This document shows positions 5,545 to 48,420 of a stretch of DNA of 60,595 nt, piece by piece. Source of the stretch: a virus (taxonomy: Duplodnaviria; Caudoviricetes); the IMG/VR virus record IMGVR_UViG_3300042879_004465, positions 1 through 60,595 of that record, one strand, 5' to 3'. A program made the position numbers and the translations under genes. Numbering within the stretch: the first letter of the stretch is position 1; every line of letters begins with the position of its first letter. The notes beneath the pieces were generated by a model. The model saw only the letters and a list, made by a program, of their open reading frames with translations. It searched no databases and was not told where the DNA came from.

Positions 5545-5826
5545 ATGTTTAGAGGAAAATATAAAAAATTAGACGCATCGGGCCTAAAAAAACAGTATCT
5601 CGCAGGAGATACTGTTTTATTTGAAGGAAATATTTACAAGGCAATAAAACAAACTGAACTTTCTCCCTTTAGAGATAAACAAAGTTGGCAATTGACAGGT
5701 TCAAATGTGATATATTCTTCGAATACCCCTCCTATATCGCCTACAACGGGACAATATTGGGAAAAAGATGGAAAGGTTTATGTCTACCACTATGATGGCA
5801 ATAATTATTCTTGGGCAGAGTTTTGA
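5545..5826 (+). CDS. Small carbohydrate-binding (CBM5/12-like) protein
   Basis: YLAGDTVLFEGNIYKA...SP....W resembles CBM5/12, followed by the fibre-type motif PPISPTTGQYW...YVYHYDG...W. Confidence 0.5.
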   Translation: MFRGKYKKLDASGLKKQYLAGDTVLFEGNIYKAIKQTELSPFRDKQSWQLTGSNVIYSSNTPPISPTTGQYWEKDGKVYVYHYDGNNYSWAEF

Positions 5827-7118
5827 ATAACTATTTTTAAAATATTAACAACTTTTTTTTCCACTTTTAAATATATTACTTTAGGTGCGCTCAATTCTTT
5901 GATGTATATAAAAGAGCAACCATCGAAGCCGGGAACACCATTTAAAAAGAAGTATTCTGTCAGAGGGAGCGAACATTCATAGTCCAAATAAGGTGAAATT
6001 TTAGAAGAAACTAAAGAAGAATCCGATAAATCAAATTTTAAAATTGTGCTAATCCCAACACTATTGTAATAAACTTCTGATGTATTAGAGCCATCAACTA
6101 GGGTAACAGTAGCAAGCGATGTTGTAGATACTCCTTCTACTCCAGTACCAACAAAAACTCTTATTGTTTCTAACTTTATGTTGGAATAGTGATCGATGCT
6201 TAAAGAAAGACCGTTGTACGCATATGGATTAAAAAGATTTTCCGTATTGTTTATTCTCGCTGCACCATACCAATTAAAAGTGTGGGTCGGGTCATTTAAT
6301 TCTCTGCAATATTTTTGATAATAATTTTGATTGTTGTATATATCAATTATAGCTCCGGAAGAATTTAACTTGTTTATAATTCCATTTTGAATTTTAGACG
6401 TTGTTAAGGTAGTTAAATCCGGAACCCCACGCATATAAATGTTTATGTTGCTAGGGACAAAATATAAATTTTCATTTAAAATTGTTTCGCTTGGGTCTAT
6501 GTAAATTATTTCTGAATTATCATTTAATTTTATTGAAGACTTTATTTTTAATCTTCCGGAATTTAAAGATGCGCTTGATACTTCTAAAAATTCTTCAAAT
6601 CCATAATCGCTACCATATACTCCCAAAAAATTTAAATTTAATGGATCTTCTTTATTTAACTTTGCTTGAAAATATTGTGCTGTCACTCCACTAATTGCTG
6701 TTAAAACTGGCGGAGAACTAAAATTATAACTTTGATAAAAACCATCGGTAATAGAAGTAGAAAAAGTTACTCCTATTGCATCTATATAAGTATTGTAATT
6801 TCCCGTAACTCCATTTAAAGTATAAATTCCTGCAAAAGATTTTTGTTCTCCGGTTTCTTCTATGTAATAAGTTCCTCCTCCAATTGCGAATGTATTTCCA
6901 ATTGAAAGATTTCCAAAAAATTGTTTTAAAAACTTTAAATCAGAAGAATTGGAAGAAGAAGAATAATCTATAAAAAAACTAGAACCAGATTTTAAAATAT
7001 TTGGGCTTGTTTCCAATAAGCCTTTGGTAAAACAGGGATCTAATGTAGCTCCAGTAAAATTTGTGGCAAATAAACTTATATTTTTAACAACAGTTAAAGA
7101 TTTATTTGTATCTGTCAT
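5805..7118 (-). CDS. Hypothetical protein, probably structural (S/T/G/N-rich, beta-strand rich)
   Basis: 437 aa ORF coupled to the upstream 7120..8040 gene, which has a late promoter; no recognisable family. Confidence 0.55.
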   Translation of the reverse strand: MTDTNKSLTVVKNISLFATNFTGATLDPCFTKGLLETSPNILKSGSSFFIDYSSSSNSSDLKFLKQFFGNLSIGNTFAIGGGTYYIEETGEQKSFAGIYTLNGVTGNYNTYIDAIGVTFSTSITDGFYQSYNFSSPPVLTAISGVTAQYFQAKLNKEDPLNLNFLGVYGSDYGFEEFLEVSSASLNSGRLKIKSSIKLNDNSEIIYIDPSETILNENLYFVPSNINIYMRGVPDLTTLTTSKIQNGIINKLNSSGAIIDIYNNQNYYQKYCRELNDPTHTFNWYGAARINNTENLFNPYAYNGLSLSIDHYSNIKLETIRVFVGTGVEGVSTTSLATVTLVDGSNTSEVYYNSVGISTILKFDLSDSSLVSSKISPYLDYECSLPLTEYFFLNGVPGFDGCSFIYIKELSAPKVIYLKVEKKVVNILKIVIQNSAQE

Positions 7119-7119
7119 A

Positions 7120-8040
7120 TTATGAAGCGAAATAACTTATTGATTGTGTCGAGGTTTTAGCTCTCACGTAAACAACGTTCAAATTGCCTACGTTTAAAAA
7201 CAGCTGTTCGCCGGGATCTAGATTATATCCCAAATTTGTTGCTAGATTGCTGTCTCCTACGTATATTATATCTGTGTTTGAGGAAGATGCCTTCAAATTT
7301 ATTCCGGCATAGCAAGTAAACCCGCTATTCAATTGAACAGATGCGGTAGTTAGGGTTCTTATTCCTGCGGTAACTCCGCTAGGTCTTACCAAGCCAAATA
7401 CAGATAAAGCATCATAAATGTCATCTACTTTTGCATAAATTGCAGTAATTCCATTTACGATATTTGTATCGTTAATCGCAGCAGTTCCAGATACAGCAAC
7501 GGTGAACGGATAAGCTCCGGTAAATCCTTGAACTCTAAGAGACCCCGTAGCTCCAGAATTTTCAACTGCAATTGTTGGATTAATGTATGCAGTGACCGTG
7601 ATATCTTGTACTGACACTCTGAGAGCATTTCCCGAAACCCCCAAAGCGGCTCCGCCCGAGCCAACCAAGGTTGCTGGTATCCAAGTATTACCGCCAAACC
7701 CATATACAGCCATACTGTCTCTCGTATAGCTTCTAGCAATGCCTCCTGTGATCGCTAGGGGAGCTCCGCTGACTCCTTGTACGCTTACGGTGCCTTGGAC
7801 GAATACTGCATCTCCTGCGCTGTTTCCCACAACAATAACTGGATCCGTAAAATTTACAATATTCGCAGTCACGCCAGTTGATAGGATGACCGGGAGTGGG
7901 GTCGATGAAGAAACCAAAGAGGCACTTGAGGTATTGCCGTAGGCAACTTTAAATACCTGATACTGTGCTCCGCCGATCTCGTTGGTGGCGATGTTTGCCG
8001 TATTGCCCGATGCTACATTAATTACAATGTTACTTGCCAT
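7120..8040 (-). CDS. Putative virion fibre or decoration protein
   Basis: 306 aa, V/G/T/S-rich. C-terminal IIYVGDSNLATNLGYNLDPGEQLFLNVGNLNVVYV resembles small virion beta-sandwich domains. SD GGAG and late promoter upstream. Confidence 0.55.
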   Translation of the reverse strand: MASNIVINVASGNTANIATNEIGGAQYQVFKVAYGNTSSASLVSSSTPLPVILSTGVTANIVNFTDPVIVVGNSAGDAVFVQGTVSVQGVSGAPLAITGGIARSYTRDSMAVYGFGGNTWIPATLVGSGGAALGVSGNALRVSVQDITVTAYINPTIAVENSGATGSLRVQGFTGAYPFTVAVSGTAAINDTNIVNGITAIYAKVDDIYDALSVFGLVRPSGVTAGIRTLTTASVQLNSGFTCYAGINLKASSSNTDIIYVGDSNLATNLGYNLDPGEQLFLNVGNLNVVYVRAKTSTQSISYFAS

Positions 8041-8059
8041 TTTTTCTCCAAGTCTATGA

Positions 8060-8066
8060 TATTTAG
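8060..8066 (-). promoter_or_regulatory. T4-type late promoter variant (CTAAATA)
   Basis: TATTTAG on the + strand, 20 nt upstream of the 8040 start codon. Confidence 0.6.
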
Positions 8067-8079
8067 GCTTAACTAACTA

Positions 8080-8107
8080 TTGATAAATTTTTAAAATATG
8101 CTATAAT
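8080..8107 (+). promoter_or_regulatory. Sigma70-like promoter for gp33
   Basis: TTGATA-N16-TATAAT with extended -10 (TGcTATAAT); ATG at 8114 lies at the expected +1. Confidence 0.55.
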
Positions 8108-8113
8108 ATGACT

Positions 8114-8350
8114 ATGTATTTAGACGATAAAGCCAAAACATCGTTTTCTTCTAAAATTTTAGAAAGAGTTCAAAAAACAAAATTGTCCTATATGGATTGT
8201 GTTATTGAATTGGCGGAAGAATTGGGAATTGAACCATCTACTGCTGGCAAACTTCTCACCAAACCAATAATTGAAAAAATTCAAGAGGAAGCAAAAGACA
8301 AGCATTTTTTGAAAAAGGGGAAAGCAAAAAAGCTTCCACTTGATGATTGA
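8114..8350 (+). CDS. gp33: Late transcription coactivator gp33 (alternative start 8108)
   Basis: SYMDCVIELAEELGIEP...KLLTKPIIEKIQEEA...FLK...KLPL; immediately upstream of gp32 as in T4-like phages. Confidence 0.85.
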   Translation: MYLDDKAKTSFSSKILERVQKTKLSYMDCVIELAEELGIEPSTAGKLLTKPIIEKIQEEAKDKHFLKKGKAKKLPLDD

Positions 8351-8381
8351 CTGTCTGGGATAAATATGTTAGAATATAACC

Positions 8382-8426
8382 ATCAGGGTAGGTCCCTGAT
8401 ATAACAAGGTCTGGGTAGGCCCCAGA
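8382..8426 (+). promoter_or_regulatory. Twin hairpins in the gp32 leader (candidate translational operator)
   Basis: ATCAGGG-TAGGT-CCCTGAT (8382-8400) and TCTGGG-TAGGC-CCCAGA (8410-8426), between a TAAATA at 8361 and the SD. Confidence 0.55.
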
Positions 8427-8441
8427 GAAAGAAAGGTAAAA

Positions 8442-9305
8442 ATGAGTTCATTTTCAGATTTTAAGAAGCGTAGCAAGAATTCGGTTCAGGACCTCAGCAA
8501 GAAGCTGGAGAGTCTCAACAGCAAGGAAAGCTACAAGGATGAGCGGTTCTGGAAGCCGTCTCTGGACGCATCCAAGAACGGGTATGCCGTAATCCGTTTC
8601 CTGCCAGCAGTGGAGGGAGAGGATGTTCCTTTCATCAAGTTCTATACACACGCCTTCCGTGGCAAGGGTGGTTGGTTCATCGAGAACTGCCGCACTACTC
8701 TTGGAGAGAAGTGCCCGGTCTGCGAAGCCAATACTGAGCTTTGGAACAGCGGGCTTGAGGAGGACAAGGATATTGCCAGAAATCGTAAGCGCAAGCTTAA
8801 CTACATCAGCAACATTTTGGTGATCAGCGATCCTTCCAACCCGGATAACGAGGGTAAGGTTTTCTTGTTCAAGTATGGAACCAAGATTTTTGAGAAGGTT
8901 CAGGCGCTAATGAGTCCTGAGTTCAAGGACGAGACCCCGGTTGATCCTTTCAACTTCTGGGAAGGCGCCGACTTCAAGCTCAAGATTCGCAATGTCGGTG
9001 GTTATGTAAACTACGACAGAAGCGAGTTTTCGGCTCCGGCTCCTCTGTTTGGAGGAGATGACAAGAAGCTTGAGTTGCTTTGGAAAAAGCAGTATCCTCT
9101 TGGAGAGTTCCTTAGTCCCGCCACGTTCAAGTCTTACGAGGAGCTCAAGGAGCGCTTCAAGAAGACTGTTGGTGAGGATATTCGCGAGCAGTTTGACGAA
9201 AACTCCGAGAGAACCGTAGAGGACGACTCAACGGTGGAGCAGGTTCCATCGGAAGATGTGGACACTCTGGATTACTTTAAGTCTCTTAAAAATAAACAGG
9301 ACTGA
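8442..9305 (+). CDS. gp32: Single-stranded DNA-binding protein gp32
   Basis: DERFWKP, GYAVIRFLP, zinc site HAF...ENC...CPVC, KYGTKIF, PFNFWEGADFKLKIR, NYDRSEF. Confidence 0.97.
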   Translation: MSSFSDFKKRSKNSVQDLSKKLESLNSKESYKDERFWKPSLDASKNGYAVIRFLPAVEGEDVPFIKFYTHAFRGKGGWFIENCRTTLGEKCPVCEANTELWNSGLEEDKDIARNRKRKLNYISNILVISDPSNPDNEGKVFLFKYGTKIFEKVQALMSPEFKDETPVDPFNFWEGADFKLKIRNVGGYVNYDRSEFSAPAPLFGGDDKKLELLWKKQYPLGEFLSPATFKSYEELKERFKKTVGEDIREQFDENSERTVEDDSTVEQVPSEDVDTLDYFKSLKNKQD

Positions 9306-9332
9306 AAAAACCCCCCGAAAGGGGGGTTTTTT
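9305..9332. terminator. Bidirectional intrinsic terminator
   Basis: AAAAAA-CCCCCC-GAAA-GGGGGG-TTTTTT between convergent genes. Confidence 0.9.
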
Positions 9333-9945
9333 ATTTTCTCCAATGTGGAGTGTCAGTTATCTGATTGGCAGTTAAATTAAATAAAGATTGTGTAGTTGGT
9401 ACAGTATAGTGGGGGTCATCAAAATCTCTTTTTTTATTCATTGAAGCTGTAAATTTTAATGAACTTTCTATTTGTTTAAAAGCAGGCTCAAGCATTTCTA
9501 TTGTTTTCATAGAAATTTTTTTGTCGGTTGCTTTTTCTACCTGATTTTGAAGTTTTGATAATTGATTATTTTTTTCTGTCAACGCAGCTCCATTTAGTTT
9601 GTTTGGATTTTCCTGTAAAGAAGGAGCTTTAGGTGGATTTATTTTTGTTTGTGCATTTGTATCGACCACCACATTGCTTGAATTTTTTGCTGCATTTGCA
9701 TTAAAATTTGTAGTTAAAGTTGGCGCAATGACCGGAGAAATTTCAGGGGATATAGGCTTACTTTCCATTATGGAAGGAGTCTGCACGGCTTCTACTGATG
9801 TTGGTATTCTTAATAATTCTGGGGCTTCCAATTTAGGAGCTTTATTTTCCGAGACTTCTGTTTTCATTGGGGTAGCAGAGACATTGATTGTCTCTGCTGG
9901 ATTATTATCTAATCCTAAAATTGAATTTTTGTTTGAGTTTTCCAT
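9331..9945 (-). CDS. Low-complexity protein in the gp29/tape-measure position
   Basis: 204 aa, P/T/S/N-rich with a coiled-coil-like second half. Directly downstream of gp26-gp51; assignment by synteny only. Confidence 0.4.
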   Translation of the reverse strand: MENSNKNSILGLDNNPAETINVSATPMKTEVSENKAPKLEAPELLRIPTSVEAVQTPSIMESKPISPEISPVIAPTLTTNFNANAAKNSSNVVVDTNAQTKINPPKAPSLQENPNKLNGAALTEKNNQLSKLQNQVEKATDKKISMKTIEMLEPAFKQIESSLKFTASMNKKRDFDDPHYTVPTTQSLFNLTANQITDTPHWRK

Positions 9946-10133
9946 TAGTATCTACTCTGCATTATTTGCTGCTGTTTTTCGGTTGTTTCTTGCTCTATAT
10001 GATCATTTAACATGTTAATATAAATTTCGTATTCCCAAGGATACATGTTTTCTATTTCTGTCACGGAAAGTCTTTGGGTATTCGTAAGTAAAAATAAAAT
10101 TTTGTAATAATCTACTAAATTAAAATAATTCAC
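9945..10133 (-). CDS. gp51: Baseplate hub assembly protein gp51
   Basis: LVDYYK..F.L....LSVTEIENMYPWEYEIYINML; follows gp26. Confidence 0.85.
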   Translation of the reverse strand: MNYFNLVDYYKILFLLTNTQRLSVTEIENMYPWEYEIYINMLNDHIEQETTEKQQQIMQSRY

Positions 10134-10135
10134 AC

Positions 10136-10807
10136 TTAGATAAAAAAACGCAAAAAACCCTCGATTTCCACTTTTTCTCCATTTATTTCATTTACATAAT
10201 ACAGGCTTGGAGAAGAATTTAAAAATGTTTTTAAAAGTTTTTCGTCTTTTATTGATATCTCATTTACTATTTGTTGTATTTCCTCTACTTTCAGGACTTT
10301 TAAATCGTATTTATTCCCATTGATTATCAAAGATTTTATTGATTTTTTTATCAATTCATTTTCGTTTATGGTACTAATATCAAAATAATCTTTAGCCTTT
10401 AATTGTTCTGCTTCTATGATTATGCCATTGCTTAAAGATATTTGTTCCTCAAGTAATCCGTTTTTCAATGTTATTTCGTTGATATTCACAGAAAACGATA
10501 TATTTTTTTCCCCTAGAAGATTTAACTTAATTTGTTCTTCTACGCTTTTTGATCTAAGTTGAAGAAATAAAAACTCTAGATCCGGAATGTAAAGATTTTC
10601 TGGATCTTTAATATTTGAACAGTTTTTTAAAATTTGACAAATATTTTTTACTATTTGTCCTACGTTATTTTCTTGTGAAATTATAGATATTAATTTTTGA
10701 TCTTTTATTTTAAAAGGACTGAAACTAATTTCTTTGCCAGAAACTGGAAGTTTCGTGGAATACTGAGGTTGAATTTGATTTATTTGATTTAAAATTTCTT
10801 GTAACAT
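10136..10807 (-). CDS. gp26: Baseplate hub subunit / assembly chaperone gp26
   Basis: PQYSTKLPVSGKEISFSPFKIKDQK, DLEFLFLQLRSKSVEE, C-terminal IEGFLRFF. Confidence 0.88.
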   Translation of the reverse strand: MLQEILNQINQIQPQYSTKLPVSGKEISFSPFKIKDQKLISIISQENNVGQIVKNICQILKNCSNIKDPENLYIPDLEFLFLQLRSKSVEEQIKLNLLGEKNISFSVNINEITLKNGLLEEQISLSNGIIIEAEQLKAKDYFDISTINENELIKKSIKSLIINGNKYDLKVLKVEEIQQIVNEISIKDEKLLKTFLNSSPSLYYVNEINGEKVEIEGFLRFFI

Positions 10808-10808
10808 T

Positions 10809-11390
10809 TTAATTTGTCGCTAATTTAAAATTATATTCCCTGAATGCAAATCTTACAATTATTTTTAGGTATTCGTTATTTGATGTAGCAGATAATTGAA
10901 TTGGGGCTATTTCAACCGGATATGTTTCTTGAAAGGTATAAGTTCCTGTAATTGTTCCGTTTAAATCTAAAATGTCTACTTTTATAGAACTGTTTTCTGC
11001 ATAATTTCTATAAAAGTCACTTACCCAAACCTTTATGTTTCCATCATTTTGGTAATATATACTTTTCATCCAATCATTTACATTTTCTAAAAGTTTTAAA
11101 TTTCCAAACACGGGAAAGGTAATCAAAACTCCATCTCTGTATGCCAATCCTCTTGCTACGGTTCTTCCTAATCCAGGGCCCGCTAAAGCATCTGCTTGAG
11201 TTGTCATAGTTATGACAGGAAGAAGAATGTTTTCCGCAATGTAAGAATTGGGAGTACCTTCCGATCCAATAGATTCTCCGATTGGAAAATACTTTGAGTT
11301 TTTTATTGTTACCAAAAATCTATTTGATCTTTGGAGACCCCCGTTATTTGCTATTCTGTTTTTTAATGCACCAATTGAAATGTCAGCCAT
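10809..11390 (-). CDS. gp54: Baseplate tail-tube initiator gp54 (tube-fold protein)
   Basis: GGLQRSNRFLV, LLP, DWM, ETYPVEIAPIQLS, VRFAFREY; between gp4 and gp26. Confidence 0.75.
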   Translation of the reverse strand: MADISIGALKNRIANNGGLQRSNRFLVTIKNSKYFPIGESIGSEGTPNSYIAENILLPVITMTTQADALAGPGLGRTVARGLAYRDGVLITFPVFGNLKLLENVNDWMKSIYYQNDGNIKVWVSDFYRNYAENSSIKVDILDLNGTITGTYTFQETYPVEIAPIQLSATSNNEYLKIIVRFAFREYNFKLATN

Positions 11391-11799
11391 TGAATATGTC
11401 CTTTTCTGTTAAAATTTTAAATTCCATTCCGTGTTTGATGCAAAAATTTTTTGCGGCTTGCCATTTGGCTGAGTTTATTAGAAATAAAATTTTTTCTTTT
11501 TTTGATGCAGATTCTTTTAAATTTACTTGTTTGTTTGGCTTTACTTCAATCAATATACTTTTTTTTTCTTGATTTTTTTCTAATTGAATTAAAAAGTCCG
11601 GTATGTATCTATGCACTTTCTTATCAATCGGATGCACGTATGGAATTTCTATTTCTTCAAATGACCACTTTTTAACTGATGTGTTTTCATCCAAAAACTT
11701 GCAAACTCTTCTTTCCCATAGAGATCGGCATAAAAGTTCAGTTTTTGAGCCCACATACTTATTTGGATTTTTTGGGGTAAATCTGGTTTTATAGGCCAT
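11383..11799 (-). CDS. gp4: Head completion nuclease gp4
   Basis: MAYKTRFTPKNPNKYVG, RSLWER, WSFEEIEIPY, RYIPDF, IEVKP, NSAKWQAA, FKILTE. Confidence 0.93.
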   Translation of the reverse strand: MAYKTRFTPKNPNKYVGSKTELLCRSLWERRVCKFLDENTSVKKWSFEEIEIPYVHPIDKKVHRYIPDFLIQLEKNQEKKSILIEVKPNKQVNLKESASKKEKILFLINSAKWQAAKNFCIKHGMEFKILTEKDIFNG

Positions 11800-11808
11800 T
11801 TGCAAAAA

Positions 11809-11834
11809 TATTTAGGTAATTTTCTTCCTAAATA
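11809..11834. promoter_or_regulatory. Back-to-back late promoters for gp4 (-) and gp48 (+)
   Basis: TATTTAGG-N10-CCTAAATA inverted repeat in the divergent intergenic gap. Confidence 0.75.
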
Positions 11835-11844
11835 ATTTTATAAA

Positions 11845-12621
11845 ATGCCAATAGAATTAGCATATCCTTTAGTATACAATGAAGAAGTGCCGTTTGCTGT
11901 AATTTTTTCTTGTGCTCCATATTCCGTATTGGCAGCGGATAGAACTAGATCTGGCATAGCAGATAGAAGAGTATTAGCAATATCATTGCCATTTAATAGC
12001 GAACCAAAAATGTCATTAGAACATACTTTTGCGGAGGGAACTAATCCAGTGGGCCCGGTTCTTAGTTTGGCAGGATTAAAAAACACTGCCGGTGGTTATG
12101 ATGCTTTAATGGAACGACTGGCTGCTCCTGCTGCAGCTTTTTACGAGGCTACTTTTACAACGGATACATATAGAAGATTTAGCAACGTGACCGAAGCAAC
12201 AATGACCAGCGAAGCTCGTAGGGCATTTTCTTTTAAATTTTTGTTTGTACCAAAAAGCGCCGATGAATCTGAAGTAGTAGATGCTATAGTAAATAATTTT
12301 AAAAATTTTTCATACCCCCAAAAAATTGAAGATCTACCGGAAAGAACTCTTCCTCAAAATTTATGGACTATAGAGGGATTTTCTACCGTAGCCGATACAG
12401 AATATCTCACAAACAGTTGGCTAGGAAATCCGCTTCCTTGTGTATTAAAATCAATGGAAGTGGACAAAGGCGATCCAAGTGATCCGGTTTTAAAAGTTTT
12501 GCCTAATACAAGAGCACTGACAACACTCTTGCAGCTTACATTTATAGAATTTGAAACGGGAACACACGATCTACTTAATAATGTTCTTTTATCTAAATCA
12601 GAAATAGCGGCGGGGAAATAA
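11845..12621 (+). CDS. gp48: Baseplate tail-tube cap gp48
   Basis: RAFSFKFLFVPKSADESEVVDAIVNNFKNFSYP, PCVLKSMEVD, LQLTFIEFE. Confidence 0.8.
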   Translation: MPIELAYPLVYNEEVPFAVIFSCAPYSVLAADRTRSGIADRRVLAISLPFNSEPKMSLEHTFAEGTNPVGPVLSLAGLKNTAGGYDALMERLAAPAAAFYEATFTTDTYRRFSNVTEATMTSEARRAFSFKFLFVPKSADESEVVDAIVNNFKNFSYPQKIEDLPERTLPQNLWTIEGFSTVADTEYLTNSWLGNPLPCVLKSMEVDKGDPSDPVLKVLPNTRALTTLLQLTFIEFETGTHDLLNNVLLSKSEIAAGK

Positions 12622-12623
12622 TA

Positions 12624-13547: not shown

Positions 13548-13548
13548 T

Positions 13549-16655: not shown

Positions 16656-16658
16656 TCT

Positions 16659-16666
16659 TATAAATA
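16659..16666 (+). promoter_or_regulatory. Canonical T4 late promoter TATAAATA
   Basis: Exact TATAAATA 9 nt before the ATG at 16676. Confidence 0.75.
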
Positions 16667-16675
16667 TTCTTGACT

Positions 16676-18183: not shown

Positions 18184-18184
18184 C

Positions 18185-19269: not shown

Positions 19270-19272
19270 ATA
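19265..19272 (+). promoter_or_regulatory. Late promoter variant CCTAAATA for the neck genes
   Basis: 9 nt before the gp13 ATG. Confidence 0.65.
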
Positions 19273-19281
19273 ATTTTTGAA

Positions 19282-20082: not shown

Positions 20083-20083
20083 G

Positions 20084-22479: not shown

Positions 22480-22488
22480 AGGCAAAAT

Positions 22489-23883: not shown

Positions 23884-23895
23884 TGGAATTAAATA

Positions 23896-25960: not shown

Positions 25961-25974
25961 ATAACTTCTAAATA
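25957..25974 (+). promoter_or_regulatory. Tandem late promoters (CTAAATA x2) for sheath paralog A
   Basis: CTAAATA at 25957-25963 and 25968-25974. Confidence 0.65.
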
Positions 25975-25992
25975 TCATAGAAAGACAAAAAT

Positions 25993-27981: not shown

Positions 27982-27999
27982 TAATTTTTTAATTAAATT

Positions 28000-28033
28000 T
28001 ATCTCCCTCAATTTTTGGGGGAGATATTTTTTT
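28000..28033 (+). terminator. Intrinsic terminator between the two sheath paralogs
   Basis: ATCTCCCTCAA / TTGGGGGAGAT stem (one G-U pair) followed by a T7 run. Confidence 0.65.
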
Positions 28034-28045
28034 AAAAATAAACGT

Positions 28046-28053
28046 CCTAAATA
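28046..28053 (+). promoter_or_regulatory. Late promoter CCTAAATA for sheath paralog B and tube genes
   Basis: 12 nt before the ATG at 28066. Confidence 0.65.
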
Positions 28054-28065
28054 TTAGAAGAAACT

Positions 28066-30048: not shown

Positions 30049-30049
30049 A

Positions 30050-30604
30050 ATGTCACAAACCATAGGAAATTTTAAATCCGGATTCAATGGAGGCACAAGA
30101 GCCAACAGGTTTAGCGTCGATATAACTTGGCCAGAAGGCGTGGGCAATTTATCGCCCGATACATTAGAATACCATGCGATTGCGGCGAAACTTCCGGAAG
30201 CAGAATTAGGAAGTATAGCAATTCCTTATAGAGGTCGTGTGGCATATTTTGCAGGAGACAGAGAGTACAAACCTTGGACGGTTACTATTTTGGACGATAC
30301 GGGAAGTAATGCTTCTTGGCTTGCATTTCACAAATGGACAAATTTATTAAGCGACAACGAAACCAACAAAGTAGATGATCCGAAGTATGTTAATACACAT
30401 AAAAGTATAATTTTCAAGCAATTACACGATCCAACTGTTTCAGATAGCACAGGGCATGAACCGATTCGTGTAATAACATTAACAAACGCTTGGCCGTCTG
30501 AAGTTGGACAAATTGCTTTGGACATGGGAGAAGGCGGCAATTTAGTTTCATATTCTGTAACTTTTTCTTATGATTATTATACTATAACAACAGGTCTTCA
30601 ATAA
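30050..30604 (+). CDS. gp19: Tail tube protein gp19, paralog A
   Basis: GGTRANRF, AAKLP, IPYRGRVAYFAGDREYKPWTVTILDD, NAWPSEVGQI, VTFSYDY. Confidence 0.9.
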   Translation: MSQTIGNFKSGFNGGTRANRFSVDITWPEGVGNLSPDTLEYHAIAAKLPEAELGSIAIPYRGRVAYFAGDREYKPWTVTILDDTGSNASWLAFHKWTNLLSDNETNKVDDPKYVNTHKSIIFKQLHDPTVSDSTGHEPIRVITLTNAWPSEVGQIALDMGEGGNLVSYSVTFSYDYYTITTGLQ

Positions 30605-30616
30605 TAAAGGAAAAAA

Positions 30617-31174
30617 ATGGATCTAGGAGCATTTAAATCAAATTTTTCTGGAGGAACTAGGGCAAATAGATTTTTAATTAGTGGAGGAATTGGCGGAAAT
30701 GCCGAATCACAAAAATTTCATACTTTTCATGTGCGGTCTACCTTTATTCCCCCAATTACGAATTTTGTTCTTAGCGTAGATGCTTATGGAAGAAAATTAA
30801 ATATTCCCGGAGACCGACAATATGCTCCTTGGCAATTAACAATTTATGATGATGTTGAAAGTGGAAATGAACAAAGCAATAATCCAAAGGAACTATGGAG
30901 ACTTTTTTCAAATTGGCATAATAACATCAATAGACACTCAAATAACACAACAGCCATAGCCGCACCATATACAAATTATAAAAATACTTGGACAATAGAA
31001 CACTTGGATTTAAATGGAAACACGAATTCTTTGAAAAAATTTATATTAAGAGGATGTTGGCCAAAATCTATCAGTGATATAGATTTTAATATGACTAGAA
31101 GAAATTTTTTAAATACTTTTTCCGTAATAATGCTATATGATGAAGTGGAAGTTGTTGGTGCTGGAGTATCATAA
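30617..31174 (+). CDS. gp19: Tail tube protein gp19, paralog B
   Basis: GGTRANRF, GRKLNIPGDRQYAPWQLTIYDD, LDLNG, GCWPKSISDIDF. Confidence 0.85.
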   Translation: MDLGAFKSNFSGGTRANRFLISGGIGGNAESQKFHTFHVRSTFIPPITNFVLSVDAYGRKLNIPGDRQYAPWQLTIYDDVESGNEQSNNPKELWRLFSNWHNNINRHSNNTTAIAAPYTNYKNTWTIEHLDLNGNTNSLKKFILRGCWPKSISDIDFNMTRRNFLNTFSVIMLYDEVEVVGAGVS

Positions 31175-31193
31175 GGATCCTAATAAAAATACT

Positions 31194-31200
31194 CTAAATA
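31194..31200 (+). promoter_or_regulatory. Late promoter CTAAATA for the head genes
   Basis: 15 nt before the gp20 ATG. Confidence 0.65.
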
Positions 31201-31215
31201 TTGTGAAAGATTAAT

Positions 31216-32787
31216 ATGTCAATAGAAATGTTTGGATTCGAATTCGGCAAAAGAAAATCAGAGGAAACTCTGAGGTCTGAGTTATTGACTGGACCAAAGC
31301 GATTAATTGCCAAAGAAGAATTTGACGGGACAGTAGCGGTAGAAGCTGGTGGCGTATTCGGCACTTATATCGATTACTCCACCGTATTGAAAGATGAAAA
31401 TGCCAACATAATTCAATACAGAAACATGTCTCTTTATCCGGAAGTGGACGCGGCAATAGATGAGATCGTCAATGCATCTATTGTGTGGGGGACCGACAGA
31501 AAACCAATAAAGCTAGATCTTACGGAAGTTCCTCTGTCCGACCAAGTGAAGAGAAAGGTAATTTATAGCTACGAGAGAATCCTCAAGATGATGGATTTCA
31601 ACTCAAAAGCGTATGAAGTTTATCGTCGTTGGTACGTTGACAGCAAACTTTTTTATTATATCATCATAGATGAAAAAAATCCAAGAGACGGAATACAGGA
31701 ACTGATTCCCTTGGATCCACTGAAGACCAAAAAAATCAAAAACATCCAGAAAGAACCCGCCGGGATCAATGCTGGTATGGTTCCTTTGATCAAAAACGTA
31801 GAGGAATTCTATGTCTATTCAAACACGGACAAAGATTCTTACCTGACCACCCCAAATCAAGGAGTCAGAATTTCAAAGGATGCAATTGGTTATGTTCACT
31901 CAGGCATCATAGATCTTAACACGAAGAGAGTAATTGGGTATCTTCACAAGGCAATCCGCCCCGTCAACATGCTTAGGCAGCTGGAAGATGCGCTCATGGT
32001 CTACCGCGTTGCAAGAGCACCAGAACGCAGAGCGTTTTACGTTGACGTTGGCCAGCTTCCGAAACAAAAAGCAGAGCAATATTTAAGAGACATGATGTCT
32101 CGATTCAGAAACAAGATAGTTTATAATCAAGGAACAGGTGAAATTAAAGATGATAAAAACCATTTGTCGATTCTTGAGGATTATTGGATTCCCCGTAGGG
32201 AAGGCTCCAGAGGAACCGAAATTTCGGTGCTGCCGGGGGGCCAAGCAATGTCCCAGATTGAAGACGTCGAATACTTCAAAAAGAAGTTGTACTCGGCACT
32301 CAACGTGCCGACGAGTAGATTAGACAACAATAGCGGTTTTAATATGGGCAGAACCACGGAGATCTCAAGAGAAGAACTTAAATTCTATAAGTTTATTGAA
32401 AGACTTCGTCACCAGTTTGCCCAAATTTTCATGCATCTCCTGAAAGTAGAACTTCTATTGACGGGAACTCTTACGGAAGATGACTGGAACTCAATCAAGT
32501 ATTACATTCAGTTCAAGTTCAATACCGACAATTATTTCTGGGATTTGAAAGAAGCAGAAATTTTATCGGAAAGATTGAAAATGGTTGGCGTGGCAGAATC
32601 TTTTGTCGGAAAATATTTCTCACAAAATTACATCAAAAAGAACATCTTGCGGTTCACCGATGAAGAAAACAAGTTGATGAATAGTGAAATGCAAGAAGAT
32701 GCCATGAAAATGCAGGCACAACAAATGGCTGCTGCTCAGGCGCAGCAAGCTGCAGGAATTCCTCCAGAAGAAGGGGCTCCCCAGTAA
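31216..32787 (+). CDS. gp20: Portal protein gp20
   Basis: YPEVDAAIDEIVN, RRWYVD, YLHKAI, EDALMVYRVARAPERRAFYVDVG, EDYWIPRREG.RGTEI. Confidence 0.97.
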   Translation: MSIEMFGFEFGKRKSEETLRSELLTGPKRLIAKEEFDGTVAVEAGGVFGTYIDYSTVLKDENANIIQYRNMSLYPEVDAAIDEIVNASIVWGTDRKPIKLDLTEVPLSDQVKRKVIYSYERILKMMDFNSKAYEVYRRWYVDSKLFYYIIIDEKNPRDGIQELIPLDPLKTKKIKNIQKEPAGINAGMVPLIKNVEEFYVYSNTDKDSYLTTPNQGVRISKDAIGYVHSGIIDLNTKRVIGYLHKAIRPVNMLRQLEDALMVYRVARAPERRAFYVDVGQLPKQKAEQYLRDMMSRFRNKIVYNQGTGEIKDDKNHLSILEDYWIPRREGSRGTEISVLPGGQAMSQIEDVEYFKKKLYSALNVPTSRLDNNSGFNMGRTTEISREELKFYKFIERLRHQFAQIFMHLLKVELLLTGTLTEDDWNSIKYYIQFKFNTDNYFWDLKEAEILSERLKMVGVAESFVGKYFSQNYIKKNILRFTDEENKLMNSEMQEDAMKMQAQQMAAAQAQQAAGIPPEEGAPQ

Positions 32788-33212
32788 TGCTGTCACCTCT
32801 GAGAGTTCAAAAATTAGTAGAAAATTTGGCAGAGGGCGAAGAAGATCTATTCAAACTAGGTCTTTTGAACGAATTGAATATAAGAAAGCAGGATCTGTGC
32901 AGGCAGCTATCTTCTGCAATTTTCGAACAATTCAATAAAATTAATGAATCTTCGGAATTCGTTGAAAACAAAAATGTTCAAAAATTAATAAAACTTTCAG
33001 AAGAAGCAAAAAAGAATAAATCAATAAAAATTGAATTTAAAAATGCTTCGATTATAAATATTTCAGAATCGGATTTTGCGTCAATAAAACTTTTGTTCGA
33101 CAACTTAAACGACAAAAACAAAGTAATATTGGCCAAAAATTTGTTTGAGGAACCAAGTTATTTTAAGCGAACCTTGGAGTTCGCAAAACAGATCAAAGGA
33201 TTAATCACATGA
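32787..33212 (+). CDS. Putative prohead core-associated protein
   Basis: Between portal and protease; helical; C-terminal FKN...LFDNLNDKNK...F...LEFAK pattern. Confidence 0.5.
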   Translation: MLSPLRVQKLVENLAEGEEDLFKLGLLNELNIRKQDLCRQLSSAIFEQFNKINESSEFVENKNVQKLIKLSEEAKKNKSIKIEFKNASIINISESDFASIKLLFDNLNDKNKVILAKNLFEEPSYFKRTLEFAKQIKGLIT

Positions 33213-33499
33213 GCGACAAATTCACCCTAATCGAATCCATCGTAAACGAAAATGCAGTTGACTTTCGCGAGATCGTCAACAAGGTTTTGTTGGAAAAACT
33301 CGCAACCAAGTTAGATGACCAATACAAGGTTGCCGCAAAGAACATGTTTGTTCTCTCCGAAGAGGAAGAAGCCGAAGAAGAGCTTGAATCAGAGGAAGAG
33401 GAAACAGAGGAAGAAACCGAGGAAGAAATGGAAGAAGTCCCTGAACAGGCTCCTGCCCCCGGTGGTTCCCGCGTAAGACAAAGCTACGGAGCATACTGA
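33209..33499 (+). CDS. Prohead core protein (gp67-like, acidic)
   Basis: LIESIVNENAVDF...KLATKL...AKNMF followed by a poly-Glu tract; directly upstream of gp21. Confidence 0.65.
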   Translation: MSDKFTLIESIVNENAVDFREIVNKVLLEKLATKLDDQYKVAAKNMFVLSEEEEAEEELESEEEETEEETEEEMEEVPEQAPAPGGSRVRQSYGAY

Positions 33500-33501
33500 T
33501 C

Positions 33502-34146
33502 ATGAAACTCATCACCGAACTGGTAGAAGACGTAAAGTACATTCAAGAAGACTCCGGTAACGGTGGTAAGGATTATTACATTGAGGGAGTCTTTCTTCAG
33601 AGCGAAGTAAAAAATCGCAATGGAAGAGTTTATCCCACTCCCACTTTGGTAAAAGAGTGCCGTAGATACATCAAAGAATATGTCGATAAGGGCAGAGCCT
33701 TGGGTGAATTGAACCATCCAACTGGCCCAACCGTCAATTTGGATCGCGTCTCCCACATGGTAAAGTCGCTCAACGAATCAGGTAGAGACATGATTGGACG
33801 TGCCAAGGTCCTAGGCACCCCGATGGGAAATATCGTCAAAAATTTGATCAACGAAGGTGCCAAACTTGGCGTGTCCAGTCGTGGCATGGGATCTTTGGCG
33901 GCAAGAAACGGATATCAAGAAGTCCAAGAAGATTTCATGCTTGCTGCAATTGACATCGTAGCCGATCCTTCTGCCCCGAATGCTTTCGTCAACGGAATCA
34001 TGGAAGGCAAGGAATGGGTATGGGACAATGGTATTTTGAAGTCCCAAGAAATTGAAAAATACCAAAGAACCATTGCCAAGAGTTCTTCCAGAAACTTGGA
34101 AAGAAACATGATCAAGGTATTTGAGCACTTCTTAAGAAGCATATGA
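33502..34146 (+). CDS. gp21: Prohead protease gp21
   Basis: MKLITE, IEGVFLQ, NRNGRVYP, ALGELNHP, LGVSSRGMGS, DIVADPSAPNAFV. Confidence 0.97.
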   Translation: MKLITELVEDVKYIQEDSGNGGKDYYIEGVFLQSEVKNRNGRVYPTPTLVKECRRYIKEYVDKGRALGELNHPTGPTVNLDRVSHMVKSLNESGRDMIGRAKVLGTPMGNIVKNLINEGAKLGVSSRGMGSLAARNGYQEVQEDFMLAAIDIVADPSAPNAFVNGIMEGKEWVWDNGILKSQEIEKYQRTIAKSSSRNLERNMIKVFEHFLRSI

Positions 34147-34625
34147 GAAAAGACTCTCAAAAATTAATTCAATATATTTACGAGCGCATCGATGATGGCG
34201 CTGATGTCGTTTCTACGTCCAGAACAACCAATACCCCTAAAAAAGCCGTTTCTTCTGCTCCCCCGAGAGAAAGAAATAAAAACATACTGATTGATCCAAA
34301 ATTAATGGGTAAAGAGTTTGGCGCAGGCATCGGAAAAGAAGAAGTGGCAACTGCTCTTTCATATACCACAATTCCATATAAAACTTTTGCGGCAGTCGGT
34401 GGATTGGGCGGCGGATTGTTAACGGCGGCAAAACAAGTATTGAACGCGCCCAAAAGAGCAGAACAAGAAGTCAAGGCACAACAAGAAGCCATAAGAAACA
34501 TGACAGGCGTTGAAAATTATTACAAAAATTTGGGAATCAAGCCAATACCGATGCACCAAAAAGGCGAAAGTTCTTTGGATACTTTGAAATCTCTTTTGGG
34601 TCTTCCGGTTTCCAAGAAAAAGTAA
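34143..34625 (+). CDS. Hypothetical basic protein inserted between gp21 and gp22
   Basis: 160 aa ORF with ATGA overlap and Gly-rich segment FAAVGGLGGGLLTAAK. Confidence 0.6.
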   Translation: MRKDSQKLIQYIYERIDDGADVVSTSRTTNTPKKAVSSAPPRERNKNILIDPKLMGKEFGAGIGKEEVATALSYTTIPYKTFAAVGGLGGGLLTAAKQVLNAPKRAEQEVKAQQEAIRNMTGVENYYKNLGIKPIPMHQKGESSLDTLKSLLGLPVSKKK

Positions 34626-34668
34626 TTTTGGTGGGTAAATATTTATTTCAATCAAATTAAAAAATTAA

Positions 34669-34675
34669 CTAAATA
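34669..34675 (+). promoter_or_regulatory. Late promoter CTAAATA for gp22
   Basis: Upstream of SD AAGGA and the ATG at 34697. Confidence 0.65.
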
Positions 34676-34696
34676 CTAAAGCATAAAGGATCTTAA

Positions 34697-35671
34697 ATGA
34701 GCGACAAACTGACAAACGAATACCTAATGAATGTTATTAAGGAAAACGTTGCTCCTGCCGTACACGACGTAAATGGCAAGGGCGCGTTCGCCGTAAATGG
34801 TGCAACCCCAATGAAGGTTGAACCAGTAGCACAACCCGGAACCGCCATGGCCAATCAAGCATCGCTGGCTCCCCGTGGTATGGCTCCCCAAACCATGGCT
34901 CCAGTTGCCAAAGAAGAAGAGGAAGAAGAAGAGGAAATGGCCGAAGCAGTAGAATTCGAACAAAGCCTCCGTTCTCTCCTTGGCGAAGTAAATCTTTCAG
35001 AAGAATTCTTCGTTCAAGTCAAGACTCTCTTTGAGGCAGCAGTTGACCAAAAATTGAAGGCTGTCGCGGAGGAAATCGCCCCTGCCCTTCAAGAAGAATT
35101 CGAAAACAAGCTTGGAACCATCACCGTAAACCTCACCGAGAAGATCGATGATTATCTAGATTACGTAGTTGAGGAATGGATGCAGGACAACAAGCTTGCC
35201 GTAGAAACCGGAATCAAGTCCACCTTGGCAGAAAACTTCATCGTCGGCCTCAAGAAACTTTTTGAGATGCACTATGTTGACGTTCCTGCCGAGAAGTACA
35301 ACGTTCTTGATGGTCTGTATGAGCAAGCCAACTCGCTCCAAGGAGACCTCAATGAAGTTCTACGCGAAAACATCGAACTAAAGAAGCAACTTCTCGTTTC
35401 AGAGTGCGCCGGAATCTTTGTCGCTGAGACAAAGGATTTGGCTGATACTCAAGTTGAGAAGCTTGCATCACTGATCGAAAACATTGAATTTGTCAATGTT
35501 GACGATTATCGTACCAAACTTTTAACCCTCAAGGAGCATTATCTTGGCGGAAAAGCAGTAATTTCGGAACAGCCAGAAGCCGAAGCTACATTCAGCAAAG
35601 CCAACTCTGTACCAACCACTCTAATCGAGAGCTACAGCAGCACTTTGTCAAGACTGGCTAGAAAACTTTAA
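34697..35671 (+). CDS. gp22: Prohead scaffold protein gp22
   Basis: LSEEF...TLFEAAV, KIDDYLDYVVEEWMQDNKLAVETGIK, GLKKLF..HYVDVP, LADTQVEKLASL. Confidence 0.95.
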   Translation: MSDKLTNEYLMNVIKENVAPAVHDVNGKGAFAVNGATPMKVEPVAQPGTAMANQASLAPRGMAPQTMAPVAKEEEEEEEEMAEAVEFEQSLRSLLGEVNLSEEFFVQVKTLFEAAVDQKLKAVAEEIAPALQEEFENKLGTITVNLTEKIDDYLDYVVEEWMQDNKLAVETGIKSTLAENFIVGLKKLFEMHYVDVPAEKYNVLDGLYEQANSLQGDLNEVLRENIELKKQLLVSECAGIFVAETKDLADTQVEKLASLIENIEFVNVDDYRTKLLTLKEHYLGGKAVISEQPEAEATFSKANSVPTTLIESYSSTLSRLARKL

Positions 35672-35674
35672 TCA

Positions 35675-35681
35675 CTAAATA
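35675..35681 (+). promoter_or_regulatory. Late promoter CTAAATA for the major capsid gene
   Basis: Between gp22 and gp23, followed by SD CAGGAG. Confidence 0.7.
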
Positions 35682-35710
35682 ATTAAAATTCACAGGAGAA
35701 AAACACTAAA

Positions 35711-37141
35711 ATGAGCTTTCAAGACAACACCCCATACGACATTCTAACCGAAAAGTGGGACCCCGTCCTCAAGCATGAGGCACTCCCTTCAATCGGCAAC
35801 GAATGGAAGACAAAAGTTACCGCAGTCCTTCTTGAGAACCAAGAACAGGCCATGCGCGATCAGTATCTCACCGAGAACAGCATGACCACCGGAAGCGACA
35901 TCGGCAGCGCAGTTGCATCGACCGCAGCAGGCGGCGTCCGTGGTTATGATCCGATCCTCATCAGCTTGGTTCGTCGCGCCATGCCCAATCTCATGGCATA
36001 CGACATCTGCGGCGTTCAGCCAATGACCGCACCGACCGGTTTGATCTTCGCCATGCGCTCCAAGTATGGTCCCGGATCAGCCAATGCCATCACCAACGAA
36101 GCCATGTTCCAAGAGCCCGATGCTCGCTTCTCAGGTGCAAGCGGTACTTCAGGCGGCTTCACTGCTGCTGGTGGTACTTCACCTTCCACCATCGGCGTAA
36201 ATCCGACCTCCTCAAGCGCAGGATTTGCTAACGCCAAGAACTCAACTGCTTTCAACAGTGCTCGCGCAATGTTGACCAGCGCTGGTGAAGGTCTATCGTT
36301 TGGTGCTGCTTCAACTGCCACTAACGTTCTTAATCAGATGTCATTCACGATTGACCGTGTTGCAGTAGCAGCAGGCACCCGTGCTCTGTCATCCGGTTAC
36401 ACCGTTGAATTGGCACAAGACCTCAAGGCTGTTCACGGTCTCGATGCTGAAGCTGAACTTGCCAACCTTCTCAGCACAGAAATTCTTGCTGAAATCAACC
36501 GCGAAGTCGTCCGCACAATCTACTGGGTTGCCCGTGATGGTTCGCAACAAAGCGACATCACAGCCAAAGGCACCTATAACCTCGACTTGGATTCAGACGG
36601 TCGTTGGTCAGCCGAGCGCTTCCGTGGCTTGGTATTCCAAATCGAGCGTGAGTGCAATGCAATCGCCAAGGAAACCCGTCGTGGTAAGGGCAACTTCGTC
36701 ATCGTCTCAAGCGATGTCGCCAGCGCCCTCGCAATGTCAGGCTTCCTCAACCTCTCACCAGCCCTCAACACCCAATTGGCTGTTGATGACACTGGCAGCA
36801 CCTTTGCTGGTTTGCTCAATGGCAAGCTTCGCGTCTACATTGATCCGTATTCTCAATTAGGCGTAAACTTCTTCTGCGCAGGCTATAAGGGCGAATCACC
36901 GTATGATGCAGGTATCTTCTACTGCCCATACGTCCCCCTGCAAATGATGAGAGCAATCACTCCCGATACCTTCCAGCCCCGCATCGCCTTCAAGACCCGC
37001 TACGGCATGGTAGCTAACCCCTACGTCTTGAAGACCGATGGTACTCCCTATGGTTCAGACTTCTCAACCCAGTCTGGCGCCAATCAGTACTACCGTCTCA
37101 CCAGCGTAACTGGTCTCCACGGTAACACCTACGGAGCATAA
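35711..37141 (+). CDS. gp23: Major capsid protein gp23
   Basis: EKWDPVL, DPILISLVRRAMPNLMAYDICGVQPMTAPTGLIFAMR, ELAQDLKAVHGLDAEAEL, FYCPYVPL, FQPRIAFKTRYG. Confidence 0.98.
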   Translation: MSFQDNTPYDILTEKWDPVLKHEALPSIGNEWKTKVTAVLLENQEQAMRDQYLTENSMTTGSDIGSAVASTAAGGVRGYDPILISLVRRAMPNLMAYDICGVQPMTAPTGLIFAMRSKYGPGSANAITNEAMFQEPDARFSGASGTSGGFTAAGGTSPSTIGVNPTSSSAGFANAKNSTAFNSARAMLTSAGEGLSFGAASTATNVLNQMSFTIDRVAVAAGTRALSSGYTVELAQDLKAVHGLDAEAELANLLSTEILAEINREVVRTIYWVARDGSQQSDITAKGTYNLDLDSDGRWSAERFRGLVFQIERECNAIAKETRRGKGNFVIVSSDVASALAMSGFLNLSPALNTQLAVDDTGSTFAGLLNGKLRVYIDPYSQLGVNFFCAGYKGESPYDAGIFYCPYVPLQMMRAITPDTFQPRIAFKTRYGMVANPYVLKTDGTPYGSDFSTQSGANQYYRLTSVTGLHGNTYGA

Positions 37142-37164
37142 TCCTAGGTAGCTGAGTAGTCACT

Positions 37165-48419: not shown

Positions 48420-48420
48420 T

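Follow-up and report, generated by a model that had tools for sequence, protein, structure and literature searches.

Does a tailed phage that encodes its own glycosyltransferase turn it on its own particle and, if so, on which proteins and at which sequence? The question is raised by a stretch of 60,595 nucleotides (nt), referred to in its full length as the window (IMG/VR record IMGVR_UViG_3300042879_004465, positions 1 to 60,595; Caudoviricetes), which by its PHROG and Pfam matches is a 60.6-kb part of the genome of an uncultured T4-like myophage. A sequence-only reading of the window had drawn attention to a recurring tripeptide, G-x-[ST], in its virion proteins, and had proposed that this motif was selected as the acceptor for a phage-encoded initiating glycosyltransferase, giving a glycan coat over the particle. 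Close to its end the window encodes a glycosyltransferase with a GT2 domain and TPR helices (GT2-TPR), followed by a collagen-like fibre gene. What we regard as defensible from the sequences is narrower than a glycan coat: an enzyme resembling SgtA of Clostridioides difficile is encoded beside collagen-like fibre genes, and an acceptor-like tetrapeptide, G-x-[ST]-G, is in excess in some of the late proteins. The best reading of these observations, and on balance a probable one, is that the SgtA-like enzyme glycosylates the collagen-like fibres.

The GT2-TPR protein resembles enzymes that act on proteins or peptides. By sequence, its best match among solved structures is the glycosyltransferase domain of GmaR (E 4.4e-15), followed by ThuS and SunS, and residues 171-321 match consensus TPR proteins. 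The AF2 model (pLDDT 86.7) has an N-terminal domain of alternating strands and helices, helices that span residues 175-387, and a disordered basic tail. By fold, the model matches ThuS and SunS over its full length (∼390 aligned columns, E 4e-15), with TPR proteins also listed and wall-teichoic-acid transferases next at ∼1e-7. Assignment as a SunS equivalog was rejected, since the NCBIfam SunS model gives 46.9 bits, far under its cut-off of 350. SgtA, the sequence of which was taken from a locus (L237) located by a published primer, matches the transferase in BLASTP (3e-19, 25% identity, residues 1-270 against 1-264) and in hhalign (probability 98.9%, E 2.4e-17, 288 columns), and the DxD motifs of the two proteins, MIDADD and WLDADD, align at DADD. 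Judged by these alignments, GT2-TPR is a true homologue of SgtA. Homologues are scarce among cultured phages, with matches in only 11 of the 50,697 phage records searched, none of them a cyanophage record. Two tandem GT2-TPR genes, 54% and 58% identical to that of the window, are present in one relative (G017, 80487-82839, loci L194-L195).

SgtA is a protein of 358 amino acids (aa) with a GT-A domain and four TPRs, is encoded directly upstream of bclA3, and puts beta-O-GlcNAc on the Thr residues of the GPT collagen repeats of BclA3 (PMC7157674). It is also reported to be active in vitro on peptides with a single site, reaching 28% in 24 h for G-P-T-G, 39% for G-A-T-G and 71% for G-A-S-G (PMC7157674). 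The tetrapeptide that is enriched in the window thus matches the sequence context in which a homologue of the phage enzyme has been shown to act.

Gene order points to a particular substrate. The window ends ahead of further fibre genes and within the collagen-like gene itself, the full-length form of which, in a 97%-identical relative (G019), encodes 712 aa with 53 G-X-Y triplets. Six contigs of the same clade, with capsid proteins 66-86% identical to that of the window, were searched, and in each of the six the transferase gene is followed, on its own strand and within 1.6 kb, by a gene that encodes a run of G-X-Y triplets (8 to 483 of them). The order of transferase and then collagen-like gene is also found in the window and holds in G019, G022/G023 and G011-G017; in all, 8 clade relatives with downstream sequence show it. 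Many of these fibre genes are of the type (G-x-T)n. Thr dominates position Y in G016 (92 of 111, 74 of 107 and 46 of 52 triplets) and is frequent there in G012, G015 and G022/G023; clade fibre repeats of the type GPTGNTGPTG... resemble the GPTGPTG... and GATGATG... of BclA3. Of two complete relatives without a transferase gene, one has no collagen-like protein and the other a single one. In the unrelated jumbo phage Tunturi_5, the genes of a homologue (33% identity) and of a 1469-aa tail fibre are 3.7 kb apart; this fibre has 110 triplets, with Thr at position Y in 66. One very long collagen of the clade is G-x-Q rather than G-x-T: a 2467-aa collagen-like protein encoded 1.5 kb downstream of the transferase in G013 (7856-15259, locus L179) has ∼480 G-X-Y triplets with Gln at position Y in ∼320.

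From the homology and the gene order we infer an activity and an acceptor: an SgtA-type GT-A/TPR enzyme would transfer the first sugar, in the cytoplasm, to Thr or Ser in the G-x-T/S-G triplets of the fibres. Soluble enzymes of a variable sugar island upstream may supply the donors and extend the glycan, a presumed link. As a minority possibility, G-x-[ST]-G sites scattered over other late proteins, which share the local sequence of the SgtA acceptor, may be hit too.

The sugar island encodes a heptose-nucleotide pathway (GmhA-like, HddA-like and phosphatase-nucleotidyltransferase proteins), three SDR epimerase/dehydratases, and GT11, GT2, GT15 and DUF5672 proteins. In the 16 island proteins and the transferase, hydrophobicity over 19-aa windows gives no sign of a membrane span, save at one Rossmann N-terminus (1.64), and domain scans of the window found no lipid-carrier transferase, flippase, polymerase or ligase. 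This soluble set fits stepwise cytoplasmic glycosylation without proving a protein target. An island lies at the same place in a 67-kb relative (G001, 51165-60604), with only the first two genes in common (81% and 61% identity) and the rest replaced, as in a serotype locus.

The promoter of the island suggests that it is transcribed early, as one unit: the perfect sigma-70-type match ahead of it is listed in Table 1. Divergent sigma-70-type promoters occupy the interval between uvsY and the island (40298-40361), an 11/12 match facing uvsY. A different element, CTAAATA, occurs 14 times in the window compared with ∼22 predicted by base composition, and all 14 copies lie 10-83 nt upstream of a start on the same strand (for example at 8066 on the minus strand, and at 25957, 31194, 35675 and 59924 on the plus strand). 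The genes behind it, almost all for virion proteins, are two small open reading frames (ORFs), the gene of a 306-aa protein (two copies), gp4, gp48, gp13, both putative sheath genes, and the portal, scaffold, capsid and collagen-like genes. By inference, CTAAATA is probably the core of the late promoters in this clade. The T4 late-promoter octamer TATAAATA was considered for this role and set aside in favour of CTAAATA, as its 7 matches are no enrichment over the 6.6 expected.

Several observations weigh against fibre glycosylation, a prediction from homology and gene order. The 712-aa collagen-like protein of G019 is poor in Thr, with mostly Q, K, R or V at position Y and only 3 G-x-[ST]-G, and the collagen-like proteins of G013 are mostly G-x-Q with Thr rare. 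Neither of two huge uncultured phages with transferase homologues of 24-28% identity has a collagen-like gene within 15 kb. Finally, CTAAATA is absent ahead of the transferase gene, which starts 3 nt past a regA-like gene, and ahead of the island; given this absence and the sigma-70-type promoter of the island, the enzymes may therefore precede the late proteins, a timing that may also fit a role in host takeover.

The most durable of the alternatives dispenses with virion glycosylation: the island and GT2-TPR would remodel the host envelope, excluding other phages, or modify DNA, and the motif excess would be structural, arising from turns, Gly-rich loops and short collagen-like stretches. 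Similar glycosyltransferase-rich regions of SAR11 T4-like phages are interpreted as host O-chain modification in PMC7029224, and both the promoter pattern of the island and the low Thr content of some clade fibres agree with such a role. Against it stand the nearest characterised relatives of the enzyme (SgtA, GmaR, SunS and ThuS), all of which act on proteins or peptides, as well as the lack of predicted spans in the island proteins and the transferase and of lipid-carrier and export functions of the four kinds sought in the window. Furthermore, the transferase stays beside fibre genes in every clade member seen. We consider host-envelope or DNA modification rather unlikely, while regarding it as a serious contender to fibre glycosylation.

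How far acceptor-like sites extend beyond the fibres was analysed by counting motifs in two sets of proteins. ORFs were called greedily, longest first. The structural set comprises 31 ORFs and 9339 aa (5805-8040, 9331-23883 and 25993-37697) and takes in assembly proteins and proteins of no known function; the other, non-structural set comprises 35 ORFs and 8800 aa. A 1499-aa protein (72-4571), an 88-aa antisense ORF (60265-60531) and the open-ended collagen-like ORF lie outside both sets. PHROG and Pfam matches cover gp33, gp32, gp51, gp26, gp4, gp48, gp25, gp6, gp13, gp14, gp15 and both terminase subunits, and further the tube proteins, portal, protease, scaffold and major capsid protein, the last of these at most 54% identical to capsid proteins of cultured phages (the best being from Synechococcus phages). 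Past the structural module follow UvsW, UvsY, the sugar island, gp55, gp47, gp46, gp45, gp44, gp62, the regA-like protein, the GT2 enzyme and the collagen-like gene. Expected motif counts were obtained by shuffling every protein 1000 times.

Gly is the most frequent residue after G-x-[ST] in the structural set (34 of 147 cases). These 34 G-x-[ST]-G compare with 9.3 expected (3.7-fold, z 8) and are distributed over 13 of the 31 proteins, and the excess is still 2.7-fold (z 6.6) when shuffling is confined to 10-aa blocks; the 35 other proteins have 2 against 2.4 expected. After low-complexity masking the structural count is 24 against 8.2, with paralogous copies dropped as well 19 against 6.6 (z 5.0), and with the three richest proteins also taken out 12 against 5.4 (z 2.9). 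The tetrapeptide was picked after inspection of the data, and we judge that the z values leave room for this. The excess of G-x-[ST]-G in certain late proteins is genuine, and Gly/Ser low-complexity tracts and paralogous copies account for part of it. The carriers are the 306-aa protein, two hub-region proteins, both putative sheaths, gp13, gp14, FN3 modules and a loop of the capsid protein. No copy occurs in the tube proteins, portal, protease, scaffold, gp25, gp26 or gp4 of any genome compared; in the window 18 of the 31 structural-module proteins are without the tetrapeptide, and therefore a coat over the whole particle, as originally proposed, does not exist on this motif.

Among the 80 G-a-b-G tetrapeptides of the structural-module proteins, position b favours Ser (20), Thr (14), Gly (9) and Asp (8). 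Asn is rare at this position (2, compared with ∼6 expected from its frequency of 7.7%), perhaps because Asn-Gly, which is prone to deamidation, is avoided in a particle that has to last.

Individual carriers differ in how the motif is held. The 306-aa protein, for which the sequence-only reading had counted 13 G-x-[ST] among 35 Gly by hand, exactly as we find, contains GNTA, GNTS, GVTA (twice), GNSA, GVSG (twice), GATG, GFTG and GITA. It has 95 homologues, none of them among the 50,697 cultured-phage records; the search with this single protein returned only contigs of at most 32 kb, which are too short to hold both its gene and that of the transferase. In 41 aligned homologues, down to 36% identity, G12-x-T14 and G172 are each kept in 41 of 41, and every homologue holds 13-23 G-x-[ST] (z 1.7-4.6); on these alignments the tripeptide is built into the family. 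The AF2 model of the monomer lacks regular structure in residues 1-190 (pLDDT mostly 46-69); beyond these, residues 192-215 form a helix and the C-terminus resembles a jelly roll. The four G-x-[ST]-G sites fall in the poorly modelled N-terminal part. A cupin or jelly-roll family was considered and no family was given, as the C-terminal matches are weak (E about 1e-3). For the adjoining 437-aa protein, an Atlas look-up gave no usable lead.

Orthologues of the 770-aa hub-region protein have 1-13 G-x-[ST]-G sites across the clade. Of the gp14 sites, 5 of 6 far relatives share the one at residue 185, and the other two are not conserved. All 13 G-x-[ST] of gp15 sit in its FN3 extension with a period of 112 aa, and the gp15 of G001, at 216 aa, is without this extension. 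The C-terminal 63 residues of the neighbouring 464-aa protein are 46-51% identical to two of the gp15 FN3 repeats, and its gene is absent from G001. Its N-terminal part gives a weak trypsin-like Atlas lead (scores 0.90-0.92), with FN3 also listed. The two putative sheath genes lie between the terminase and tube genes, where G001 has a single ORF (629 aa) sharing 29% identity with the first. Searches of PHROG and Pfam gave no family for either of the two, and no sheath family was found at E <= 1e-5. We call them paralogues on the strength of their tandem layout and two motif contexts common to both, FHAGLSG and GATG. The T4-gp18-like sheaths of two relatives without the transferase, G006 and G007, have 1 and 2 G-x-[ST]-G sites. 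The capsid loop is semi-conserved in close relatives and differs in sequence in far relatives, cyanophage S-8S55 and T4 gp23. The statement that the motif recurs across unrelated folds is thus only partly borne out, since gp15 and the 464-aa protein share FN3 repeats and the putative sheaths are called paralogues; the 306-aa family is a separate case.

Comparison of genomes bears on whether the scattered tetrapeptides were selected as SgtA-like acceptors, so that the exterior of the particle beyond the fibres (sheath, hub, neck, capsid and 306-aa protein) would carry a glycan varying with the island. Besides the restriction of the 3.7-fold excess to structural-module proteins, seven further transferase-bearing genomes of the clade show G-x-[ST]-G at 2.85- to 4.50-fold in structural homologues and 0.65- to 2.1-fold in non-structural ones, compared with 1.56-fold in G006, 1.87-fold in G007, 1.53-fold in S-8S55 and 0.81-fold in T4, all without the transferase. 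SgtA takes single isolated sites, with Ser as well as Thr; four of the five sites testable against far relatives are lineage-specific; and sites shift while the counts per protein stay similar, as if number rather than place were kept.

These arguments are countered at several points. The 8 carrier genomes compared are one clade, hence one evolutionary contrast, and this contrast rests on clade-specific proteins and low-complexity tracts: seven core orthologues (gp13, gp14, portal, protease, scaffold, capsid and gp3-like) have 6 sites in the window compared with 5 in G006 and 5 in G007. The capsids of G006 and G007 have 3 G-x-[ST]-G each (about 0.6 expected) and their gp14 proteins 2 each, as many sites in these proteins as with the transferase, and the clade member G013 falls to 1.52-fold after masking. 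A transferase-less locus, L057, reaches 3.17-fold in a record that is 50% complete. Of 79 motif columns, 45 are unique to one of the 8 genomes and 1 is present in all 8; such scatter may come from sites being gained and lost while selection acts on their number, or from noise in the alignment of loops rich in Gly, Ser and Thr. The tetrapeptide may also merely mark turns and loops. Selection of the scattered sites as acceptors is, in our judgement, improbable. Equally doubtful is the wider proposal in which the SgtA-like enzyme would decorate the fibres together with the sheath, hub, neck, capsid loop and 306-aa protein, a swappable island giving each strain its own glycan.

The loose tripeptide remains to be considered, together with the claim that it marks virion proteins. 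All of the quoted strings are present in the sequence, in the 306-aa and 437-aa proteins, 'gp53', the hub, gp13-15, both putative sheaths and the capsid protein. In the window, G-x-[ST] occurs 147 times in the structural set against 110.2 in shuffled sequences (1.33-fold, z 4.1) and 62 times in the other set against 47.5 (1.31-fold, z 2.3), so that under the composition-controlled comparison the enrichment is not specific to the virion; the absence of such a pattern from replication proteins holds to the eye and is lost after shuffling. The 1499-aa protein has 13 against 18.9 (0.69-fold). Similar values are found in 50 kb of Escherichia coli K-12 with housekeeping genes (42 ORFs; 140 against 115, 1.21-fold) and in S-8S55 (15 structural proteins, 246 against 201.6, 1.22-fold; 40 others, 91 against 73.8, 1.23-fold). 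G001 gives 1.24-fold for 29 structural proteins (109 against 87.8) and 1.05-fold for 54 others (79 against 75.5). The structural loci of five far relatives (16-17 ORFs each) give 1.27- to 1.36-fold, and a transferase homologue is found in none of their 5 records, two of which are 100% complete. T4, with 0.84-fold for 32 structural proteins (94 against 112.4) and 1.15-fold for 57 non-structural ones (107 against 93.4), made the window look special when taken as the only baseline; it was dropped from that role, as E. coli, S-8S55 and the far relatives show it to be the outlier.

Raw densities are 1.57 per 100 aa in the structural set and 0.70 in the other, a 2.2-fold gap that exists because the Gly and Ser/Thr contents of the two classes differ; the density in S-8S55, at 2.0 per 100 aa, is above that of the window. 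Adjacent spacings are flat in the structural set (G+1 1.08, G+3 0.82, [ST]+2 to G 0.96), with the exception of [ST]-G at 1.31. Local composition was rejected as the source of the loose excess, since block shuffles of 30 and 15 aa leave 1.32- and 1.28-fold; the small excess is therefore position-specific, though common to all control sets. G-x-T alone is at 80 against 53.8 (1.49-fold) in the structural set, where it ranks second among 319 residue pairs at spacing +2, compared with 23 against 19.4 (1.19-fold) in the other set and 1.35- to 1.48-fold in the far relatives. Once the 306-, 437- and 464-aa proteins are removed and low-complexity segments masked, the other 28 proteins have 92 against 82.8 (1.11-fold, z 1.2).

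Because non-virion, E. coli, cyanophage and transferase-less sets are similarly enriched, G-x-[ST] cannot be read as a selected sequon. The loose motif is Gly/Ser/Thr-rich composition plus a general protein tendency of 1.2- to 1.3-fold, and is uninformative on glycosylation. That it was selected in all virion proteins as the site of a particle-wide coat is highly implausible: the strings are real, G-x-T is prominent and a protein-type transferase and a sugar island are present in the phage, but the same enrichment is found where the transferase is missing, including a cyanophage, and the tube proteins, portal, protease and scaffold lack even G-x-[ST]-G. A three-residue motif with two degenerate positions can strike the eye yet match the general protein background. 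The sequence-only reading thus took real strings and, from a statistic that fails, drew a partly right inference: the loose sequon and the coat fall away, and the narrower G-x-[ST]-G excess and the SgtA-homologous GT2-TPR enzyme stand.

The features discussed are collected in Table 1. Elsewhere in the window, the 1499-aa protein is Gly-rich, has weak RCC1-repeat matches and no G-x-[ST]-G; its counterpart in G001 is 2050 aa long, with only 28% identity over 566 aligned residues. Four genes belong to the tube family (10809-11390, 30050-30604, 30617-31174 and 37221-37697), and a strong terminator-like hairpin (37167-37197; 13 pairs, 8 of them G-C) lies directly 3′ of the capsid gene.

Table 1. 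Positions of features in the window, with motif counts and supporting matches.
Feature	Position	Strand	Match or remark
Structural module of T4-like myophage, 31 ORFs	5805..37697	.	PHROG matches
437-aa protein, family unassigned, adjoins 306-aa gene downstream; 11 G-x-[ST] against 6.6 expected, 1 G-x-[ST]-G	5805..7118	-	
306-aa protein, family unassigned, richest carrier; 13 G-x-[ST], 4 G-x-[ST]-G	7120..8040	-	
770-aa hub-region protein; 4 G-x-[ST]-G (GTSG, GLSG, GASG, GSTG)	13549..15861	+	
Gly/Ser low-complexity tract of 264-aa hub-region protein (gene 15861-16655); 5 overlapping G-x-S-G	16083..16160	+	
gp14-like neck protein; 3 G-x-[ST]-G	20084..20989	+	PHROG
FN3-repeat extension of gp15	21685..22479	+	Pfam fn3 E 9.5e-11
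464-aa protein between gp15 and small terminase subunit; 15 G-x-[ST] against 6.5 expected	22489..23883	+	
Two tandem putative sheath genes, 662 and 660 aa; 4 and 3 G-x-[ST]-G	25993..30048	+	
Major capsid Gly/Ser/Thr-rich loop, aa 140-157; GASG and GTSG	36128..36181	+	
Sigma-70-type promoter ahead of island, perfect TTGACA-16 nt-TATAAT	40334..40361	+	sole 12/12 match in 37000-53500
Sugar island, 16 ORFs	40390..52628	+	
GT2-TPR glycosyltransferase, 435 aa	58600..59907	+	Pfam GT2 PF00535 E 4.6e-16
Collagen-like fibre gene, open at window end, 46 nt past transferase gene	59953..60594	+	Pfam Collagen 1.1e-7

Should fibre modification by an SgtA-like enzyme prove correct for this clade, the large glycosyltransferase islands found in aquatic T4-like phages would have to be interpreted afresh. 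They are at present taken to modify the host surface (PMC7029224); they would instead serve to decorate the phage's own host-recognition apparatus, which would affect host range, particle stability and grazing. Were the scattered tetrapeptides acceptors too, the strains of an abundant and uncultured clade of aquatic, T4-like viruses would each bear a different glycan coat at a defined motif. A literature search, with supplementary files outside its scope, found no report of SgtA-like glycosylation of collagen-like phage fibres.

Among known systems, the SAR11 T4-like phages are similar in being aquatic and T4-like, and in having tail-fibre regions as well as clustered genes for glycosyltransferases and sugar nucleotides. 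They differ in that these genes are taken to act on the host O-chain, and that paper mentions TPR 0 times (PMC7029224). Among tailed phages, only mycobacteriophages have documented glycosylation of the virion, as far as we found; there, glycans are reported at the C-termini of capsid and tail-tube subunits (Freeman et al. 2023, as cited in PMC12619734). These are likewise tailed phages with glycosyltransferases of their own, which there modify virion proteins; in contrast, the tube proteins of the window are without G-x-[ST]-G, and the enzyme family and presumed acceptor differ.

GmaR, the O-GlcNAc transferase of Listeria flagellin, and the S-glycosyltransferases SunS and ThuS are the best solved-structure matches of the window enzyme and, like it, join a GT-A domain to a helical or TPR domain (for the domain order of GmaR, see PMC9638930). 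They act on proteins or peptides, their substrates being flagellin or small bacteriocin peptides, unlike the presumed fibre substrate here.

The SgtA/BclA3 pair of C. difficile differs from the phage system in several respects. BclA3 is a spore-surface protein, whereas the presumed substrate in the phage is a tail fibre, and Thr is scarce in the nearest collagen-like protein of the lineage to which the window belongs. The predicted phage enzyme is longer (435 compared with 358 aa); its helical part is more extended and its tail is basic and disordered, and a 12-kb heptose and deoxy-sugar island lies 6 kb upstream of it. Nevertheless, the two enzymes are homologous, each with a GT-A domain bearing DADD followed by TPR helices, the transferase gene lies directly upstream of a collagen-like gene in both, and the peptides accepted by SgtA in vitro equal the motif that is enriched in the window.

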